From: Escherichia phage phiEco273
Length of the DNA stretch: 44,707 bases
Direction: 5' to 3' (one strand)
Sequence record: PP786691.1
Shown here: piece by piece, positions 3,891-38,329 of the stretch
How positions within the stretch are numbered: the first letter of the stretch is position 1
How the letters are laid out: the number at the start of each line of letters is the position of its first letter
Made by a program: the position numbers and the translations under genes
The notes under the pieces: model-generated
The model's database searches: none
What the model was told of the DNA's origin: nothing
The model's input: only the letters and a program-made list of their open reading frames with translations

Positions 3891-4105
3891 CGTTCAGTCC
3901 TCATGTTGGTGTGCAACCAATATAGCAGGGTGCTGGGGCGGGCGCAACCAATATTAATCACGCGTATGAAAAGTTGATCGCTATCTGCTGAAACTGCAAA
4001 CTGCATTTTTCACCCACCATTCTGCAACTCGCATTGGTTGCCTAGTTCATCGACGACCGCAATTTACATCATGTTGCCGTGCATTATGCAATCCAGGATT
4101 TTATG

Positions 4106-4290
4106 CAGTCTCAGACGAGGGGGGTGCCAGACCCCCCGTCTAGTCTGAAAGACTGGGGTGCTGTCCCGCTGTCCCGCTCCTCGCCAGGCCGCGTCATCCG
4201 GGGCGGGACAAGGGTGCTGTCCCGCTTTGTCCCGCCCCTGGTCTGTCCCGCTTTTTGTCCCGCTTAGTTTATGCAGTTTTATTGCATAAC
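4106..4290. repeat. Repeat element copy 1: imperfect GC hairpin (GACGAGGGGGG...CCCCCCGTC) followed by 6 direct and 1 inverted copy of GTCCCGC and TTATGCA(G/A)T motifs
   Basis: Direct reading; about 85 percent identical over ~185 bp to 32399-32585 in the same orientation. Confidence 0.8.
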
Positions 4291-4369
4291 TATTCACTAT
4301 ATTTACACTACACGGCAACCAATACGACCGCCTAAAAGCACGCAAAATGGCAACCAATGCGCGCAAAAT

Positions 4370-4600
4370 TTAATCTTTTAAATCGTCATCGGTCGCTGAA
4401 AGCGTGATGGGGATATCCGATTTGATGACCAAATTAGACGACCCATAGATGGCCCCGGTGTGCGGATCGGTATAGAAACCTATCACTCCGCGCTCCACCA
4501 TATCGTCGATTGCCTTCGTCGAAGTGCCACCTTTTGCCAGCCCAGCCTGGCGGACAATTGCCGATTTACTGAATCCAGTATGGTCCGGGTTGTCTTCCAT
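4370..4600 (-). CDS. hypothetical protein (76 aa from internal ATG overlapping primase stop)
   Basis: ORF 4370..4627; ATG at 4600 overlaps upstream stop by one base, suggesting translational coupling. Confidence 0.4.
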   Translation of the reverse strand: MEDNPDHTGFSKSAIVRQAGLAKGGTSTKAIDDMVERGVIGFYTDPHTGAIYGSSNLVIKSDIPITLSATDDDLKD

Positions 4601-6633
4601 CAGTTTTTCCAGTGCCGCATAAAGCACTTTCTCTTTTCGTTGCGCGGTCCGGCGGTGTTCTCTTCCTTAACCGCGGCCTTGCCTGCCGCCTTCGCCTGTT
4701 CAATAGCGAACGGTGCCAGGGCAACCGGTACGAGGTAGAGAGTCTCGTCGCGTGGCGTGGAGGCAATTGGCTTGACGTCCCATCCGGCAACCACGTCGCC
4801 GAAGTCTGGCCCGGTGCTGGTGGACTGGTGCGCCTCGAACGCTTCTGACTTGCGGAGATCTACCTTAACCTTGCACTTGAGCAGGACGAAGCCACGCGGC
4901 GCTTGCTTGATGCCGTTACGTGACTTCTCATGATACAGGTTCAATTGTCCGGGCTGGTTGTCGTCCGGCTGTTCCAGGAAGAACGCAGAATCGACAGCAC
5001 CATGCAGCGCGCCGGACCCGCGTGGCGTTCTGCTGCCGTTTGCACCTTTAGCCGGGTGGTGGATGACTCCCGCACTACCACCTGTATTTTCCGCGATGGC
5101 CTTCAGCGCTTTGACCACTTCACCCATATCGCTGGCGTTGTTCTCGTCGAACGGTTTAGCATCCGCGGACCGCAACGCAACAGTCTGGTTTAGTGAGTCG
5201 AACGCCACCAGGCCAACCGGTTCGCCGTTAGCGGTGCGGTTGATAAAGCTGATAACTTCGCGCAAGCCTGATTTGCTGGTGATATCCCAGCCGCGTGACT
5301 GCAGGTCTATAATGTGCAGCTTGTCCAGGTCGTGCTCATATTTAATCTGCAATGCTTCTTTACGCTGGTTGGAGGCTTCGCCACCTTCCGCATCGAAATA
5401 GAAGCAATGAGACTGGACGACCTTCGCACCGCCAAACGGAATACCGGCGGCAACCGCTCCCATCTGGCCCAGCACATAGAAAGACTTACCGATATTCGAC
5501 TCGCCAGCCATGTACCAGGTCGATTTAAAGTTAATCAACCCCTCGATAATCGGGTCGTGCTTACTGAACAGCGCAACCGGCTCGTTATCCAGATCCGCAT
5601 CGGTGCACACGCCGTATTCTTCGCCGTCGCCAACCGCATCAACGATATGTTCATAGCACGATTCCACTTCTTCGTCGTCCAGCCCCGGAAGGATGGCGGC
5701 GATTTGCTTACGGGACATATTGTGTGGCTCGACGTTCAGGTGATCCGGGATCCCGATAAGACGTAGCGCCAGGTGCTGGTGTCTGTTCAGTTCCGAGCAA
5801 CACTCGTTACCGGTGTGCATACACTTGAAACGGATCTCGCCATCCTTGACCATGATAGCCGTCGACCCTTCGCCGCTGTGCAGATGTTCGTTCGGGCACG
5901 GCACTTCATAACCGCGACCGGAAGATAACTCCTCGAATCCTGCCTGGAAGCACCAGTCCAGAATACCGTCTGCCACTGCGTCGTCACCCTGGGTAAGCTC
6001 GCGGCGTACTTCCTCTTTTTCCACCCCCAGCTTGTCAGCCAGGCGGAGCAGACGACGGACGCGGGCGCGCTTGCCATAGTGGCACTTAATAACAGACTGC
6101 TGGTGTGGCAGGTACATCAGGCGGTTTGTGTCTTTCGTGCAATCGTCGAAGTCCACATCTGACAGACCCAGTTGGTGTAATAGTGCATACTGGACGCGGC
6201 CCAGGTCTTCAGCCGGTACAGGCTTGTCAGTGAGTACCAGGAATCGAGCGCAACGCGTGCCGCCTTTCAGTGGGTGACGGTCGCCGGTTGTGGTGTGAAA
6301 TACGTGTTCCAGCCCCGCGTCAATGAACGCCTTACGGCAGCGGCGTAGGGTGCGGGTGTCGGTACGGTCAATATCGAAGAACAGGATCGAGCGGTCCACC
6401 GCACTGGTCTTACGACGCAATCCGTCACTGGTATACGCCACGATGCCGTCGGCCTTACGCTTGCGGCGCGCATACTCGGCTTTATCTTCCGTCTTGTTGA
6501 TATGCACCGAGGAGATTTCTTTCGCATCTTTGATAAATTCGAAAAATTCATCGGTGGTCATCTGGAAGTTTTCCGCCCTGGCTTTTTCGCCTTTTTTAGC
6601 GGGTCTTGTAACAGCGAATTTAATTAAGCTCAT
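4600..6633 (-). CDS. DNA primase/helicase (N-terminal primase-polymerase-like domain, C-terminal RecA/DnaB-like P-loop NTPase)
   Basis: 677 aa; Walker A GESNIGKS in C-terminal half; N-terminal region with acidic FFDIDRTD motif resembling prim-pol domains; AAGG RBS. Confidence 0.7.
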   Translation of the reverse strand: MSLIKFAVTRPAKKGEKARAENFQMTTDEFFEFIKDAKEISSVHINKTEDKAEYARRKRKADGIVAYTSDGLRRKTSAVDRSILFFDIDRTDTRTLRRCRKAFIDAGLEHVFHTTTGDRHPLKGGTRCARFLVLTDKPVPAEDLGRVQYALLHQLGLSDVDFDDCTKDTNRLMYLPHQQSVIKCHYGKRARVRRLLRLADKLGVEKEEVRRELTQGDDAVADGILDWCFQAGFEELSSGRGYEVPCPNEHLHSGEGSTAIMVKDGEIRFKCMHTGNECCSELNRHQHLALRLIGIPDHLNVEPHNMSRKQIAAILPGLDDEEVESCYEHIVDAVGDGEEYGVCTDADLDNEPVALFSKHDPIIEGLINFKSTWYMAGESNIGKSFYVLGQMGAVAAGIPFGGAKVVQSHCFYFDAEGGEASNQRKEALQIKYEHDLDKLHIIDLQSRGWDITSKSGLREVISFINRTANGEPVGLVAFDSLNQTVALRSADAKPFDENNASDMGEVVKALKAIAENTGGSAGVIHHPAKGANGSRTPRGSGALHGAVDSAFFLEQPDDNQPGQLNLYHEKSRNGIKQAPRGFVLLKCKVKVDLRKSEAFEAHQSTSTGPDFGDVVAGWDVKPIASTPRDETLYLVPVALAPFAIEQAKAAGKAAVKEENTAGPRNEKRKCFMRHWKN

Positions 6634-6973: not shown

Positions 6974-6987
6974 TGCTCTGCCCTCAG

Positions 6988-7033
6988 TTGGTTAATGACC
7001 AACGAAACTACACCCAAAACTGCACGGTGTCAA
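6988..7033 (-). promoter_or_regulatory. Leftward promoter (-35 TTGACA 7033-7028, 17-bp spacer, -10 TAGTTT 7010-7005) overlapping perfect palindrome GTTGGT-N5-ACCAAC (6988-7004)
   Basis: Sequence read on minus strand; palindrome lies at the predicted transcription start. Confidence 0.5.
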
Positions 7034-7148
7034 ATCCTTTGGATATTGAAACGGGCGCGCACGCGTGTAATAATAATTCCCGTCTCATTGTCTCTTATTG
7101 GTTAGCGCCGTTGCATTTTGCCTCGGCGCTTTTTTTTGAAATTAGTTG

Positions 7149-7177
7149 TTGACTCCCTTCTGCAACCAATCTAATAT
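7149..7177 (+). promoter_or_regulatory. Rightward early promoter: -35 TTGACT (7149-7154), 17-bp spacer containing GCAACCAA, -10 TAATAT (7172-7177)
   Basis: Near-consensus sigma70 hexamers with 17-bp spacing and AT-rich upstream tract. Confidence 0.55.
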
Positions 7178-7375
7178 GCACTCCGTCGACAGGATGCAGG
7201 ACGCAAACTGGAGAGGGGCAACGCAGGGGCCGGATCGAAGTGTCAGGATTCCCAACCGTGATTATATAACCAGGTCCACTACCCGAACGGGAGAACGCGT
7301 AACCTGGCAATATGTTAAGGCCACCGACGAAGTTAACTGCCGACACCTAAACTTAACCAATCGGAGATATAAAAC

Positions 7376-7894
7376 ATGTTTGAACAAATCGTAAACCTGA
7401 TTACTCGCGGCGTAGTAGCACTGGAAACCATCGCTAAGCATTATGAAACCGTTGGCGCTGCCGTTGGTAAGCCGGAAGACAAGAAGCCGTCTAAGGCCAA
7501 AAAAGAAGTCGTAGAAGATGACGACGATGAAACCGAAGACGAAAAACCGGCGAAAACCAAAAAAGCACCGGCTAAAGGTAAGGCCAAAAAAGAAGTCGTA
7601 GAAGATGACGACGATGAAGAAGCCGAAGACGAAAAACCGGCGAAGGGTAAAAAAGCACCGGCGAAAGGCAAAGGCAAGAAAGATGCCGATCCGCTGGCAG
7701 AGATGCGCGACGAGATCAAACAGTATGCCGCTATTATCGCTGGTGGTGACGACGACGATGCCAACGACGAATTCGACGACCTGCTGGAATCGTTCGAGAT
7801 CAAATCAATCGCCAAGCTGGAAGATGACGACGTCGAAGACTTCCACAAAGATCTTAAAGAAATCGTCGAAACTTATTTCGAACTGGAAGATTAA
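7376..7894 (+). CDS. highly charged acidic/basic repeat protein (172 aa), function unknown
   Basis: First ORF of rightward operon; internal 87-bp tandem duplication (7495-7581 / 7582-7668) encoding KAKKEVVEDDDDExEDEKPAKxKKAPAKG; followed by hairpin terminator. Confidence 0.65.
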   Translation: MFEQIVNLITRGVVALETIAKHYETVGAAVGKPEDKKPSKAKKEVVEDDDDETEDEKPAKTKKAPAKGKAKKEVVEDDDDEEAEDEKPAKGKKAPAKGKGKKDADPLAEMRDEIKQYAAIIAGGDDDDANDEFDDLLESFEIKSIAKLEDDDVEDFHKDLKEIVETYFELED

Positions 7895-7900
7895 TATTAT

Positions 7901-7930
7901 CCGGCCCGCTAATCTGCGGGCCTATTTTAG
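7901..7930 (+). terminator. intrinsic terminator (GGCCCGC-loop-GCGGGCC + T-rich tail)
   Basis: Hairpin plus TATTTTA directly after stop of 7376..7894. Confidence 0.5.
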
Positions 7931-8193: not shown

Positions 8194-8382
8194 ATGGCTA
8201 TATTCTTTGTTTTATTTCGTTGCCGTATTACCGGCGACGAGCAACCGGAAATTGTTATGAATCAAAACTGGAATTGCTGCTGGATGCAAGCCCGAGGACT
8301 GGCGGCTACCATGAACAATGCCGCTAAGCGGGCCAATGTTGAACATGACTATTACATTGCTCAATTTACACGGGTGGAATGA
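8194..8382 (+). CDS. small hypothetical protein
   Basis: 62-aa ORF, Cys/Trp-rich; weak. Confidence 0.25.
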   Translation: MAIFFVLFRCRITGDEQPEIVMNQNWNCCWMQARGLAATMNNAAKRANVEHDYYIAQFTRVE

Positions 8383-9812
8383 TGGCGATTAAACCAAAAC
8401 GTAAGACGCAATCCGGCAGCAATACGGAACACTCATTACTCGGGCCATCCGGTGCTAAAAAATGGATGGGTTGCCCCGCCGCCCTGGTGGTAGAAAAAGA
8501 TATCCCGAACGAATCCGGGCAAGCCGCGATTAACGGTACGAGTATGCACACCGTATCGGAGGTGGTGCTAAACCGCATTATCGCCGGTGAGAAGCTGATA
8601 ACCGCGAAGACGTATAAAGGGTGCTACGTCGAGAACGAAGGCAAGGGGCCAGTAAAGGCACACCCGAAAGCACCGAAAGGCGGCGTACTGGTCAACGACG
8701 ACATGGTGAAACAGTGCGACGCGTACATCGACCACTGGCGACCGCTCATCGAAGTGGCGGAGTTTATCCAGCTTGAGATGCGCGCCGATCTGACCCGCGT
8801 CCTTCACTCAGGCTACGAGATCGACGGCAACAGGATTAAAACGTTCGGTACTGCCGATATGGTCATGGTCATGAAAAAGACCGATGGAACGTACATGCTG
8901 ATTGTTGGCGACCTGAAGACCGGGCGGCATAAGGTCGAGGCGAAAGAGAACAAACAGCTTATGTTGTACGCGCTCGGCCTGCTGCGCAAGCTGCAAACTA
9001 TGTACGACATTACGACCGTGCGCCTGGTTATCTTCCAGCCGTATTGCGGTGGGGCGTCGGAGTGGGATATTTCGGTAGAAGCGCTGGAGATATTCGCGAA
9101 GTTTGCATCCAAGCGCGCTATTGCCGCACTGGAGGCGTATTCCCGAGGCAAGAAGGGGCTTACCCGTGCCGACTTCCGCCCCAGCGTTGATGCGTGCCAG
9201 TGGTGCCGATTTGCGGATCAGTGTAGTGCCCGCGCTAAGGCCGCAATCGACACGATGACACACCCAACGGCAACCGACGAAGACCTGGGCGACGACGTGA
9301 GTATTGCGACAGAGGAAGAATGCGCCAACCATGACCGCAATATGGCCCGCGAAGCCAGGAAGGCGGCACGACGTGCGAAGCGTGGTAAGAAAGAAGCGGC
9401 CCACGGTGCTATGAGCGCTGCGGAACTGCGCAAGGCTTATGAAGGCCTGGACGCAATGCGCCAGCACATCAAGGCTATCGAGTCCGCGGTATTCAAGGCG
9501 GTCATGGCGGGCGATGGCGAATCGCTGGGCCTCAAGATGGTTGCCGGTAAGGAAGGGATCCGTAAGTGGGCGGACGAGAGCGAAGTGATTGAAATCTTCA
9601 CGAAGGCCCGGATCAAGCGCGATGTGATGTACAAAGAAACATTGCTCAGCCCTACGGATGCCGAGAAGGTACTGAAGGACGAAAAACCGAAAGTGTGGGC
9701 GAAGCTGTGTGCTAAAATCACGCGCGCACCCGCCAAACCGGTGTTAGCCCCAATCGACGACCCTCGCCCTGCGTGGTCGGAAGCTACTGACGAGGACTTA
9801 AACAATGAATAA
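8379..9812 (+). CDS. Cas4-like PD-(D/E)XK exonuclease (DUF2800-like) with C-terminal Cys cluster
   Basis: 477 aa; N-terminal LLGPSGAKKWMGCPA motif, D/E-K core (IVGDLKTG), CQWCRFADQC cluster; adjacent to SSB-like gene as in known phage replication modules. Confidence 0.65.
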   Translation: MMAIKPKRKTQSGSNTEHSLLGPSGAKKWMGCPAALVVEKDIPNESGQAAINGTSMHTVSEVVLNRIIAGEKLITAKTYKGCYVENEGKGPVKAHPKAPKGGVLVNDDMVKQCDAYIDHWRPLIEVAEFIQLEMRADLTRVLHSGYEIDGNRIKTFGTADMVMVMKKTDGTYMLIVGDLKTGRHKVEAKENKQLMLYALGLLRKLQTMYDITTVRLVIFQPYCGGASEWDISVEALEIFAKFASKRAIAALEAYSRGKKGLTRADFRPSVDACQWCRFADQCSARAKAAIDTMTHPTATDEDLGDDVSIATEEECANHDRNMAREARKAARRAKRGKKEAAHGAMSAAELRKAYEGLDAMRQHIKAIESAVFKAVMAGDGESLGLKMVAGKEGIRKWADESEVIEIFTKARIKRDVMYKETLLSPTDAEKVLKDEKPKVWAKLCAKITRAPAKPVLAPIDDPRPAWSEATDEDLNNE

Positions 9813-10047: not shown

Positions 10048-10137
10048 CCGCGTAGGCGCAACCAAGTAGATTAGCAACCAAGCCGAACGGGGTGGCTTCC
10101 AATAACCCCGATACATGTGAAAATGAGGAATTGGAAA

Positions 10138-10920
10138 ATGGCTAAAGTCAACCTGAAAAATGTGCGCGTATGTTTCCTTAAAATTTGGGAACGTGATACC
10201 CCTAAACAGGATGGACAAAAACCGGCATACCGCGCCGTGATTCTTCTTGATAAAGAAGATCCGCAGGTGGACAAAGTGGAAGCGGCAGCGCGCGCAGTGC
10301 TCACCGACAAGCTGAAATCCGAGAAGAATGCCGATAAGTGGATGGACCGCCACTACGCCCAGGATTCTAAGGAATGCGCAGTACGCGACGGTGACGAGCG
10401 CGACGAAGTAACCGAAGAATTCGAAGGCATGTTGTACATCAACGCCAAATCGTTCAAACAGCCAAACATTCAAACGTCACTCGGCGAGAAGCAGACCGAA
10501 CAGGGTCTGACCGTAGAAGGCGACGAAATCGAAGGCCAGGAGATCTACTCCGGTTGTTATTGCAATGTGTCCCTCGATATCTGGGCGTGGAACAATACCA
10601 ACGGCAAGGGACTCGGGGCTGGTTTGCTGGGGCTGCGATTCCGTGACGACGGCGAAGCCTTCGGCGGTGGCGGATCTTCTTGCTCAGACGAGGACCTGGG
10701 CGACGATGACGAAGATGAAAGCCCGCGCAAGTCCAAAAAGTCAAAACGTCGTGATGACGATGACGAAGATGACAAGCCGCGCAAGTCCAAAAAGTCCAAG
10801 CGCCGCGATGACGACGACGATGAGGAAGATGAAAAACCTCGCAAACGTCGTAAGCCACGCGATGACGAAGATGAGGACGACGACGAAGACGAAGCGCCAC
10901 GCAAACGTCGCCGCCGTTAA
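10138..10920 (+). CDS. ssDNA-binding/annealing protein, T7 gp2.5-like (DUF2815-like) with alternating acidic/basic C-terminal repeats
   Basis: ATG at 10138 with GAGGA RBS; N-terminus MAKVNLKNVRVCFLKIWER resembles gp2.5/DUF2815; C-terminal repeats DDDDEDDKPRKSKKSKRR x3-4. Confidence 0.55.
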   Translation: MAKVNLKNVRVCFLKIWERDTPKQDGQKPAYRAVILLDKEDPQVDKVEAAARAVLTDKLKSEKNADKWMDRHYAQDSKECAVRDGDERDEVTEEFEGMLYINAKSFKQPNIQTSLGEKQTEQGLTVEGDEIEGQEIYSGCYCNVSLDIWAWNNTNGKGLGAGLLGLRFRDDGEAFGGGGSSCSDEDLGDDDEDESPRKSKKSKRRDDDDEDDKPRKSKKSKRRDDDDDEEDEKPRKRRKPRDDEDEDDDEDEAPRKRRRR

Positions 10921-10978: not shown

Positions 10979-11148
10979 ATGCGCATTAAAGCCAGCGAAG
11001 TAAAAGTCGGAATGCGGGTATGGTCCAAGCTACTGGGGGAGTATTTCACAGTTGCCGAGATCCGCAACAACGGCGAGGAGATAGCCCTTTCCGACGGTAT
11101 ATTCTCCATGATCGGCAGCGCTGACGCCGTAGTGAGGATTAAGCAATG
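10979..11148 (+). CDS. small hypothetical protein (56 aa)
   Basis: ATG 10979; stop overlaps DNA polymerase ATG (ATGA); below ORF-track cutoff. Confidence 0.35.
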
Positions 11149-13437
11149 AAAGACTTCGAACGCCTTTTTCTCGATACCGAGACATTTAGCGGGGTGGACC
11201 TGAAGAAAGTGGGCGCATACGCCTACGCGGAACACCCAACTACCGAGATTATGATTTGCACATACGCCATCGACGAGGGCCGCGTACAGACATGGGATTG
11301 CACCGAATCCCCCACAATGCCGCGTGAACTGCGCAAGGCGCTCCGCCGGGTATCCCGCAAGAAAGCAAAAATCGTGATGGCTAACGGCCTCCTGTTTGAC
11401 CGCCTGGTTATTCGCGAGAAGTGGGGCATTGACCTGCCGGTAGGCCAGATCGAAGATACCATGATTATGGCCTTTCGCCACGCGCTGCCGGGTAGCCTCG
11501 ATATGCAGTGCCAGGTGTTGGGCGTTGACGCAGAGCACGCGAAGGATAAGGCTGGCAAGGCGCTAATCAAACGATTCTGTAAGCCAACCCCTAAGACCTA
11601 CAAAATCCGTCGCTATACGCGCGAGACGCACCCCGAGGAGTGGGCTAAATTCCTGCGCTACGCCGCGCTGGATATTGTTGCTATGCGTGAAGTCTACTGG
11701 CGCATACCAGACTGGGGCAACACGCCGAAGGAAGATGAAATCCTGCTTATTGACCAGATGATTAACGACCGCGGCTTCTATGTGGACGTTGACCTGGCTA
11801 ACGCCGCGATCAAAGCGGTGCAGGCGCATAAGGAAGAATTGAAGGAAGAAGCATGGGAGCGCTTCGGCGGTAAGCTGACCGGCAATGACTTCCTGCCAGC
11901 GCTGCGCGACCTCGCGCCTGCGTTCACAATACACAACGCGCAGAAATCCACGCTTAACGAACTGCTGGAAGACCAGGACTTCCCCGACGAGGGCAAAGTG
12001 CTTATCGAGATGCGCCTCGGCGCGTCATCAACGGCATCGACTAAGTACAATCCGCTCGTAAATGGGCTGTCTGCCGATGGTCGCCGCCGTGGTTGTCTTC
12101 AGTATGGTGGGGCAAAGCGCACGCTACGCTGGGCCGGAAAGGGCTTCCAGCCGCAAAACCTGGCACGCGGCGAGTATAGCGACGACCACGAAGGGAAGAT
12201 TAAGCGCCGTGATGGCGAGAGCGACGTCGCGTTTTGGGTGCGGTCGCACATGCTCACCAACGGCATCAACTCCCTGTTACGCGGGACCGCACACTGGGCG
12301 TATGACATATCGAAGCTAACGGCCTCGACTGTTCGCGGGTGCATTATTCCGGCGAAGGGTAAGAAGTTTGTCGTAGCGGACTACTCCAACGTGGAAGGGC
12401 GTGGCCTCGCCTGGATCGCTGGCGAGAAAACCGCGCTAATGGTGTTTAGGGCGGGTCGCGATATCTATTGTGAAACTGCCGGTAAGATGTTTGGCCTCGA
12501 CCCGGAATACATTAAAGCCAACCGCAAAGACTTACGCCAGATCGGTAAGGCGTGCGAATTGGGCCTGGGCTATGGTGGTGGCGTGGCGGCGTTCTTGCAG
12601 TTCGCTAAAAACCTGGGCCTCGACCTTTACGCGATGGCTGAAGTGATGAAGGGCACATTCCCCGATCACATTTGGGCGGCGGCGAAACGGGGTTATGAGT
12701 ACGCCCGGATCAACGAAGCGAAGCGCCCGCCGAAGCCTGGCAAGAAGGACGAGCGCCCAACTTATATACTGCCGAAAAACGTATGGTTGACGTGTGATGC
12801 GATCAAACGTATGTGGCGCGAGTCGCACCCGAAGACGGTAGCATTTTGGGCTGAACTGGAAGACGCGGTGCTCTGCGCGATCCGCAATCCGGGCAAAGCG
12901 TACTGGGCTGGCGCGAACGTTCGCCCGGATGGCAAGAAAGCGCTCAAGATAGTCCGCACGAAGGCGAAGCACGACCCCACCTTCGACGAGGAGCGCGACG
13001 ACCCGAACGCCGCGGGGTGGTGGTTGAAAATCGAGTTGCCGTCGGGGCGCATCATGAGTTATCCGGGCATTGCGCTGTCAGTGACTACCGAGATCGACGA
13101 AGATACCGGCAAGAAGCGCACCAGCACCCGCATTAAATATCAGGGCGAGAATCAGACGACCCGCCAGTGGGGCTTCCAGTACACCTACGGCGGCAAACTC
13201 ACGGAAAACATCATACAGGCGCTGTGTCGCGATATCCTCGCATGGTCCATGCCGGGCGTTGAATCTGCGGGATATGAGATCGTACTGTCCGTACACGATG
13301 AACTGATAACCGAAGTGCCGGATACTGACGACTACACAACCGAGGAGTTGTGCGCGCTGATGTGCGACCTGCCTGTTTGGGCGAAAGGCTTCCCGCTTGC
13401 CGCGGAAGGCGACATTATGTACAGGTACAGAAAATAA
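11146..13437 (+). CDS. DNA polymerase, family A (PolA-like) with 3'-5' exonuclease domain
   Basis: 763 aa; N-terminal exonuclease motif LFLDTETFSG; long polymerase-like C-terminal region ending ...SVHDELITEVP (family A motif C-like). Confidence 0.8.
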   Translation: MKDFERLFLDTETFSGVDLKKVGAYAYAEHPTTEIMICTYAIDEGRVQTWDCTESPTMPRELRKALRRVSRKKAKIVMANGLLFDRLVIREKWGIDLPVGQIEDTMIMAFRHALPGSLDMQCQVLGVDAEHAKDKAGKALIKRFCKPTPKTYKIRRYTRETHPEEWAKFLRYAALDIVAMREVYWRIPDWGNTPKEDEILLIDQMINDRGFYVDVDLANAAIKAVQAHKEELKEEAWERFGGKLTGNDFLPALRDLAPAFTIHNAQKSTLNELLEDQDFPDEGKVLIEMRLGASSTASTKYNPLVNGLSADGRRRGCLQYGGAKRTLRWAGKGFQPQNLARGEYSDDHEGKIKRRDGESDVAFWVRSHMLTNGINSLLRGTAHWAYDISKLTASTVRGCIIPAKGKKFVVADYSNVEGRGLAWIAGEKTALMVFRAGRDIYCETAGKMFGLDPEYIKANRKDLRQIGKACELGLGYGGGVAAFLQFAKNLGLDLYAMAEVMKGTFPDHIWAAAKRGYEYARINEAKRPPKPGKKDERPTYILPKNVWLTCDAIKRMWRESHPKTVAFWAELEDAVLCAIRNPGKAYWAGANVRPDGKKALKIVRTKAKHDPTFDEERDDPNAAGWWLKIELPSGRIMSYPGIALSVTTEIDEDTGKKRTSTRIKYQGENQTTRQWGFQYTYGGKLTENIIQALCRDILAWSMPGVESAGYEIVLSVHDELITEVPDTDDYTTEELCALMCDLPVWAKGFPLAAEGDIMYRYRK

Positions 13438-16632: not shown

Positions 16633-16666
16633 ATTGGTTGCATAATCGTATTGGTTGCATTATATT
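16633..16666 (+). promoter_or_regulatory. Promoter-like element with two direct ATTGGTTGCAT repeats: -35 TTGCAT (16638-16643), 17-bp spacer, -10 TATATT (16661-16666)
   Basis: Direct reading; same architecture recurs at 38270-38310, 18292-18325, 22216-22248 and on the minus strand at ~3895-3960. Confidence 0.5.
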
Positions 16667-38181: not shown

Positions 38182-38329
38182 GCTATCCCCCTGGGATTGT
38201 GGCAAAGCGGGCCACCCGCTTGACTTCACGCCTTAATATTATCAGCGATAAAAATAATCGCAAAATTCGCTTGCAATCCGAGTATTGGTTGCATTATATT
38301 GGTTGCACACCAACAACGAGGACACAAAA

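Follow-up and report, generated by a model that had tools for sequence, protein, structure and literature searches.

A conserved acidic protein with a charge-striped tether heads the replication-recombination operon of a Dhillonvirus-like coliphage and is preceded by a structured leader RNA

The first gene of the rightward operon of Escherichia phage phiEco273 encodes an acidic protein of 172 amino acids (aa) that we tentatively regard as a tethered, abundant, nonstructural adaptor of the DNA replication-recombination module. Its transcription unit is headed by a leader of about 165 nucleotides (nt) that maintains its base pairs through compensatory changes and, by this sequence criterion, is a structured RNA; this leader is the most novel feature of the locus. 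The window, that is, the whole stretch of DNA analyzed here, is 44,707 nt long and corresponds to a complete Dhillonvirus-like coliphage genome, in which a 1.4-kb region at the gene shows 94 to 95% identity to many Dhillonvirus coliphages (UHP65, EE09, Gluttony, SECphi18, and BASEL phages). A preliminary description of the gene was essentially right in what it observed, with details misdescribed, and its interpretation is partly supported. The module with this protein is common to hundreds of sequenced coliphages and Salmonella phages, including BASEL phages and the model phages of the Sorek laboratory used in defense research. The features of the locus are collected in Table 1.

Table 1. Positions of the gene, its signals, its protein modules, and neighboring elements in the 44,707-nt window
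Feature	Position	Strand	Basis or remark
Second promoter-like site, TTGAAA-17-AATAAT	7046-7137 region	+	Extended TG; 10/12 matches
Hairpin followed by T8	7105-7129		About 30 nt after the second promoter-like site; segment 95-98% conserved
Sigma-70-type promoter P2, TTGACT-17-TAATAT	7149..7177	+	Drives leader and gene; pattern scan; hexamers invariant in six Dhillonviruses; annotated promoter in HK578
ATTGGTT[A/G] copy	7163-7170		In the spacer of the promoter of the gene
Structured leader RNA, about 165 nt	7183..7351	+	Starts at the predicted transcript 5' end; conservation and covariation
Leader helix P1	7185-7192 pairing with 7337-7344
Leader GNRA-type hairpin	7279-7293	+
ATTGGTT[A/G] copy	7354-7361		Near the ribosome-binding site of the gene
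Shine-Dalgarno sequence GGAG	7363..7366	+	9 nt 5' of the ATG; outside the leader structure; read from the sequence
ORF, 172-aa acidic protein, family phrog_3127	7376..7894	+	ATG start; 166 homologs; ortholog detected by mass spectrometry in infected cells
Conserved N-terminal amphipathic helix, aa 2-24	7379..7447	+	AlphaFold2 helix; pLDDT below 50; not docked
Disordered linker with segregated charge blocks, aa 25-104	7448..7687	+	pLDDT below 50
Repeat unit 1, 87 bp, 29 codons	7492..7578	+
Repeat unit 2, 90 bp, 30 codons	7579..7668	+	Partial third copy to 7683
Conserved acidic three-helix bundle, aa 106-168	7691..7879	+	AlphaFold2 pLDDT 85-93 in two models; 25 invariant columns
Intrinsic-terminator-like hairpin (7903-7922, 7 G-C pairs) and TATTTT	7903..7929	+	13 nt 5' of the next gene
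gp2.5-like SSB gene	10117-10920	+	Tail of alternating DDDD and KSKKSKRR blocks
SSB tail repeat	10701-10844		54-bp tandem repeat, 2.3-2.6 copies

The open reading frame (ORF) was correctly delimited in the preliminary description, with its ATG start and a GGAG 9 nt upstream, and its product is indeed highly charged, with D/E blocks and K-rich tracts (D+E 31%, K+R 17%) that form segregated charge blocks and an overall pI of 4.46; the C-terminal 70 aa carry a net charge of -21, with a pI of about 4. Many database entries give the ortholog a 60-aa N-terminal extension beginning with MQDANWRG (L013 3697-4395, which is EE09_56; JL1_18; Opt212 gp20; and Ioannina). This extension is probably an annotation artifact, because its frame is shifted by 2 nt in the window. 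The extended orthologs of 231 to 239 aa, which read through the leader RNA, were rejected on these grounds and because the extension is missing in distant clades.

The genes around it are arranged in a constant order: a divergent HTH gene, the gene described here, 0 to 3 small ORFs, a DUF2800 PD-(D/E)XK exonuclease, a gp2.5-like SSB (Enc34/DUF2815), and PolA. In the window, the exonuclease is encoded at 8379-9812, the SSB at 10117-10920, and PolA at 11146-13437; further replication proteins of the phage are a primase-helicase (4600-6633) and an SNF2 helicase. The duf2800-gp2.5-polA module has already been recognized (PMC8093625). The gene is always the first in the operon, not only in Dhillonvirus but also in two metagenomic lineages (40 to 59% identity), an IMG/VR contig, the Jerseyvirus Ent2, and phiEap-2. 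This conserved synteny across genera indicates that it is a core companion of the recombination-replication module and no accessory gene in a variable slot. An extra ORF of 37 to 41 aa follows the gene in some Dhillonviruses (welsh, WFI, SECphi18, and Zar3M; L003 6902-7015, L005 1136-1249, and L006 770-895), and its insertion accounts for length differences of about 120 bp among relatives.

Published proteomics of cells infected with EE09 detected only four phage proteins at 25 min, CDS29, CDS40, CDS56, and CDS61, and CDS56 is absent from the table of cell-free lysate proteins (PMC10673088). Translation identifies EE09_56 as the ortholog of our gene, annotated with the spurious N-terminal extension, and EE09_61 as the SSB. 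Through its EE09 ortholog, one of the four phage proteins detected, the gene product is therefore strongly expressed.

Two AlphaFold2 models concur on the architecture of the protein: a helix of low confidence at residues 2 to 24, a disordered middle, and a three-helix bundle at residues 106 to 168. A closed four-helix bundle was rejected, since the N-terminal helix is not docked onto the C-terminal domain in the second AlphaFold2 run, which used a short-linker homolog and a deeper alignment. The homologs, 166 of which were retrieved from a search of 5.8 billion proteins, keep the N-terminal segment MFEQIVNLITRGVVALETIAKHY and a C-terminal segment of about 70 aa almost invariant, while the middle is hypervariable. 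The N-terminal helix, with invariant residues L8, R11, V13, V14, A15, E17, I19, and A20, is conserved in distant clades. The protein matches phrog_3127 over its full length (E=1.8e-53; residues 1 to 172 versus profile positions 1 to 178 of 178), a family with unannotated function. A profile of the C-terminal domain recovers only 39 clusters among 1.84 billion representative proteins, and the domain lies at the C terminus in all 39, with a tandem arrangement in 3 and an enzyme fusion in none; the full-length members share the architecture. The family is thus limited to a subset of the phages with the module, meaning that it is no universal replication component. Its members also occur in Guernseyvirinae and in Edwardsiella phage eiAU, and tblastn with a Guernseyvirinae-type homolog as the query matches 473 phage records. 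Scans with Pfam, with NCBIfam, and with Pfam for each member of the protein family gave low-complexity noise only and no family, profile searches of PDB sequences found nothing relevant, and three fold searches returned generic three-helix bundles only. A weak fold match to the Red-beta C-terminal domain (E=8) was not counted as evidence. The fold search of viral models retrieves eiAU Gp46, St162, and the MB78 "13.88 kDa late protein."

The linker of this protein has a charged fraction of 0.56 and a net charge per residue of -0.05, with charge segregation at z=6.1 versus shuffles; it is net neutral because lysine-rich blocks are tethered to the acidic domain. Among 101 Dhillonvirus-type proteins, linker length ranges from 29 to 93 aa, and the number of acidic blocks per linker is 0 in 4 proteins, 1 in 39, 2 in 55, and 3 in 3, so that the comparison of copy number among relatives proposed in the preliminary description does reveal variation, from 0 to 3 acidic blocks. 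Across relatives, the linkers keep a net charge per residue near zero and a charged fraction of 0.4 to 0.6, and charge segregation exceeds that of shuffles (z of 4 to 6) even in clades with unrelated linker sequence. One clade at about 40% identity builds its linker from PEPEPE, EEEE, and KAKAK tracts, with the charges likewise segregated. The retention of near-zero net charge and segregation across clades implies that selection keeps a striped, neutral, disordered tether and neither its sequence nor its length. These linkers represent a natural series of length variants that preserve the charge pattern, useful for studying how much change a disordered region tolerates.

The in-frame tandem repeat reported for this gene exists, but its units measure 87 bp and 90 bp with a partial third copy, rather than twice 87 bp. 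Tandem Repeats Finder delimits it at 7492-7683 (period 90, 2.2 copies, 88% matches, score 300). Between the equal 87-bp blocks given before (7495-7581 and 7582-7668), a 3-bp indel (GAAACC versus GAAGAAGCC) throws the alignment out of register and leaves only 53 of the 87 positions matching; once the indel is allowed, units 1 and 2 of this genome are 88% identical. Both unit lengths are divisible by three, so the reading frame is kept. How recent is the duplication? The preliminary description took it for a recent expansion or contraction, but unit 2 resembles its counterpart in SECphi18 (97% identity) more than it does unit 1 of its own genome (only 88%). Unit 1 in turn shows 89 to 90% identity to the first units of welsh and SECphi18, and the outgroup WFI likewise carries a pair of units, with 70% identity between them. 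Other relatives differ in their complement: HK578 carries a single unit, the first block of JL1 is a different one, and the 115-aa homolog P0098 has none. The repeat units cluster by position across phages, which marks the duplication, on sequence comparison, as an old length change in the disordered linker and not a recent one.

We tentatively propose that the N-terminal amphipathic helix and the acidic C-terminal three-helix bundle would serve as two conserved binding modules, joined by the disordered, net-neutral linker of alternating lysine-rich and Asp/Glu-rich blocks. The linker would act as a flexible tether whose lysine blocks may contact DNA. Because its length would not be critical, blocks could be gained and lost harmlessly when the 87- to 90-bp unit slips or recombines unequally, and the duplication seen here would be an old instance of this process. 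We infer that the two modules bind partners, with the neighboring exonuclease, the gp2.5-like SSB, or a host DNA-processing enzyme as likely candidates; the expression, architecture, conservation pattern, synteny, and repeat history of the protein are, by contrast, shown by the data above. The adaptor reading accords with an N-terminal helix and a C-terminal domain that are almost invariant next to a hypervariable linker. It accords less well with the limitation of the family to 39 clusters and with homologs labeled "13.88 kDa late protein" (an annotation inherited from phage MB78), and a net charge of -21 in 70 aa would fit a DNA mimic too.

Is this core, abundant, uncharacterized protein a replication organizer or a host-nuclease disabler? 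The answer would fill a gap in the understanding of these phages. In lambda, the recombination genes are ordered gam-bet-exo, and the order of our gene, the exonuclease, and the annealase/SSB recalls it, making a Gam-like RecBCD inhibitor the main rival of the adaptor, though one that we consider unlikely. As a host nuclease inhibitor like lambda Gam or T7 gp5.9, the acidic C-terminal domain, dimerized by the N-terminal helix, would block RecBCD, or an end-processing enzyme like it, by imitating DNA, so that the linear genome is protected and the phage's own exonuclease and annealase are free to work. The strong negative charge and low pI of the C-terminal 70 aa, the abundance of the protein, its production first in the operon, and its encoding directly upstream of a recombination exonuclease and a gp2.5-like annealase all fit such an inhibitor, as does the finding that the annotation of a curated relative includes no RecBCD inhibitor elsewhere. 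However, neither sequence nor fold searches matched the protein to Gam, gp5.9, Abc2, or a DNA mimic of solved structure, and lysine-rich blocks beside the acidic domain would partly neutralize the mimic. A different kind of organizer is brought to mind by the SSB, whose tail alternates acidic and basic blocks in every examined phage with our protein, including Ent2, phiEap-2, and two metagenomic lineages. Disordered regions that are striped in charge and expand by repeats are thus common to two abundant proteins of the module, and by analogy this suggests an electrostatic interplay of SSB tail and linker, possibly a PopZ-like scaffold. PopZ is laid out as a helix, a disordered region, and three C-terminal helices, and our protein, with its helix, disordered region of about 80 aa, and three C-terminal helices, parallels it. 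In such a scaffold, the helical modules would oligomerize, and multivalent electrostatic contacts would form among the two striped regions (the linker and the SSB tail) and DNA, concentrating the replication machinery in a compartment. The conservation of charge segregation but not of linker sequence, the SSB tail with the same pattern and a tandem repeat of its own, and the ranking of both proteins among the most abundant in infected cells speak for the scaffold. We nevertheless hold it to be improbable: the parallel is one of analogy, the PopZ profile (Pfam DUF2497) does not match the protein at E<=10, so that the resemblance is in layout only, and natural variants such as P0098 (115 aa) have almost no linker. 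Scarcely credible is a role of the repeat at the DNA level, for example as origin iterons inside the gene as in lambda gene O, with the protein duplication as a by-product. The repeat does lie in the replication module and next to a divergent promoter region where the GC skew changes sign, but it consists of only about two long units and no short iterons, these units are absent or replaced in many relatives, such as HK578, P0098, and JL1, and distant clades keep the charge pattern with unrelated DNA.

An Ocr-type DNA mimic directed against type I restriction-modification systems, a role suggested by analogy in the preliminary description, is very improbable in our judgment. Its appeal lies in an acidic, highly expressed product of the first gene behind a strong promoter, and the strong net negative charge that characterizes Ocr and ArdA is present here in the whole protein and above all in its C-terminal 70 aa, though the linker is net neutral. 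However, no match to Ocr or ArdA was found in Pfam, NCBIfam, or PHROGs or in profile searches of all PDB sequences at E<=10. The structure comparison called for in that description yielded a three-helix bundle that matches no DNA mimic and does not set out carboxylates in B-DNA geometry. The gene, moreover, belongs to the core and keeps its place in the replication module from genus to genus. Both strands of the 44.7 kb contain 0 EcoKI sites (AACN6GTGC) and 0 EcoAI-type sites (GAGN7GTCA), with about 5.5 expected of each, while the same genome has 4 EcoRI and 18 EcoRV sites; the BASEL Dhillonviruses have 0 to 2 EcoKI/EcoAI-type sites. The scarcity of type I sites hints at site avoidance rather than an Ocr-type shield. 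A published account portrays Dhillonviruses as relatively sensitive to systems of types I and II (PMC8594841). The site counts, the lack of a mimic match, and this sensitivity together argue against an Ocr-like function and are compatible with other antinuclease roles. Several published links between these phages and defense systems were considered and rejected for this gene: Ksap1, the Dhillonvirus trigger of KpAvs2, is a different gene of 74 aa; the trigger of RAZR is the portal protein; and the published sets of SECphi4 and SECphi18 escape mutants implicate the SSB and the polymerase. The text of the retron Ec48 paper contains no statement on whether Dhillonviruses trigger Ec48.

The placement of the gene behind a rightward promoter holds in that it is the first of the rightward operon and the sigma-70-like promoter is conserved in relatives; the distance from promoter to ATG is about 200 nt, and hence the two are not adjacent. 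The gene also has its own predicted terminator, as claimed earlier, in the form of a hairpin and TATTTT that are conserved in relatives, the segment showing 94 to 96% identity in HK578, JL1, and EE09, with a terminator annotated at the equivalent place in WFI and PTXU06. From its sequence, this hairpin is predicted to be attenuating. Upstream of the main promoter, the second promoter-like site and the hairpin after it may produce a tiny transcript of about 55 nt or form an insulator ahead of the main promoter; in Ioannina, the hairpin stem carries a compensatory change (GCGCCG/CGGCGC to CCCCG/CGGGG). The motif ATTGGTT[A/G] occurs 46 times with <=1 mismatch, versus 27.6 expected, a count reached in 0 of 100 shuffles, and clusters in promoter-bearing regions (3914-4358, 6987-7361, 16633-16657, and 38284-38305); the divergent HTH protein may use it as an operator.

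As derived, the leader structure is closed by helix P1 and also contains a long-range stem and two arms, a GNRA-type hairpin being part of the arms. Its sequence is 98 to 100% identical across the genus, including the outgroup, compared to 85 to 95% in flanking coding sequence, and identity is still 93% in one phage even though its version of the protein shares only about 59% with ours; the leader is missing in Ioannina and Guernseyvirinae. A blastn search and a 17-mer scan located it in unrelated phages as well, namely, Drexlerviridae Tempevirinae (Motto, JK16, and KMI8), Sortsnevirus (sortkaff and IME279), BUCT618, and IMG/VR contigs. Each of these copies occupies an unannotated gap of 200 to 260 nt, starting 6 to 9 nt past a -10 box and ending 25 to 45 nt before the downstream gene, and the downstream genes are not homologous to one another. 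Among the 17-mer matches in the genome collection, 35 of 36 were rejected as chance, and only one, in a phage-sized contig, was genuine. No copy of the element was found in 5,426 complete Escherichia coli genomes, and Rfam 15 gave no gathering-score match in the window and none at E<=10 within 7184-7351.

A covariance model built from the derived structure finds one match per genome, at 145 to 190 bits. In the leader alignment, 87% of cells are paired, versus 34 to 44% when the partners are slid, and compensatory (double) changes are present in 22 of the 42 pairs. The covariation score is 0.275, versus 0.04 to 0.10, and the observed value is reached in 0 of 500 shuffles; the covariation is carried by P1, P6, and P7, with P4 and P5 invariant. 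Folded alone, the leader is thermodynamically not unusual (z of +1.5), and its structural support is the covariation. Because the structure does not include the Shine-Dalgarno sequence and is not followed by a terminator stem, there is no evident expression platform of a classical riboswitch. We put forward, as a tentative but plausible reading, that the leader heading this transcription unit represents an undescribed class of structured RNA restricted to virulent siphoviruses of enterobacteria that belong to unrelated lineages (Dhillonvirus, Drexlerviridae Tempevirinae, Sortsnevirus, and BUCT618). It would be a cis-acting element at the start of early operons and could, for instance, bring about factor-independent antitermination like put/EAR through the terminator after our gene, or it could sense a host signal. 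That the leader affects transcription in cis, such as by read-through of the hairpin behind the gene, is a reasonable hypothesis by analogy. If confirmed, the leader would constitute a new class of phage RNA shared across families, and it would offer direct access to the control of early transcription in virulent siphoviruses.

Several known systems resemble the elements of this locus. Like the HK022 put RNA, the Bacillus EAR element, and riboswitch aptamers, the leader is a structured RNA with which an operon transcript begins; its unpaired nucleotides are highly conserved, and a terminator lies downstream within the operon. It matches no Rfam family, is larger than put, at about 165 nt, and has neither a terminator hairpin nor an expression platform sequestering the Shine-Dalgarno sequence before the start codon. 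The direct homologs of the protein, Sodalis phage SO-1 gp46, Edwardsiella phage eiAU Gp46, and the Salmonella phage MB78 protein, share its three-part architecture and genomic position; none is functionally assigned, and "late protein" is an inherited annotation. T7 Ocr (gp0.3) and ArdA are likewise small, very acidic, and produced from the first gene after a strong promoter, but Ocr is a compact elongated dimer without basic tracts, whereas our protein is composed of a helix, a disordered linker, and a three-helix bundle and belongs to a replication module. Lambda Gam and T7 gp5.9 are also acidic helical proteins encoded beside phage recombination genes; our protein differs in having no detectable homology or structural match to them, and its inhibitory activity is putative. 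With PopZ-type hubs and SSB-type proteins with disordered tails, it shares a short interaction helix, a long charged disordered linker, and a small helical domain, the linker being free in sequence and kept in composition. It has no homology to PopZ-type hubs, and its linker is net neutral and striped, not uniformly acidic.
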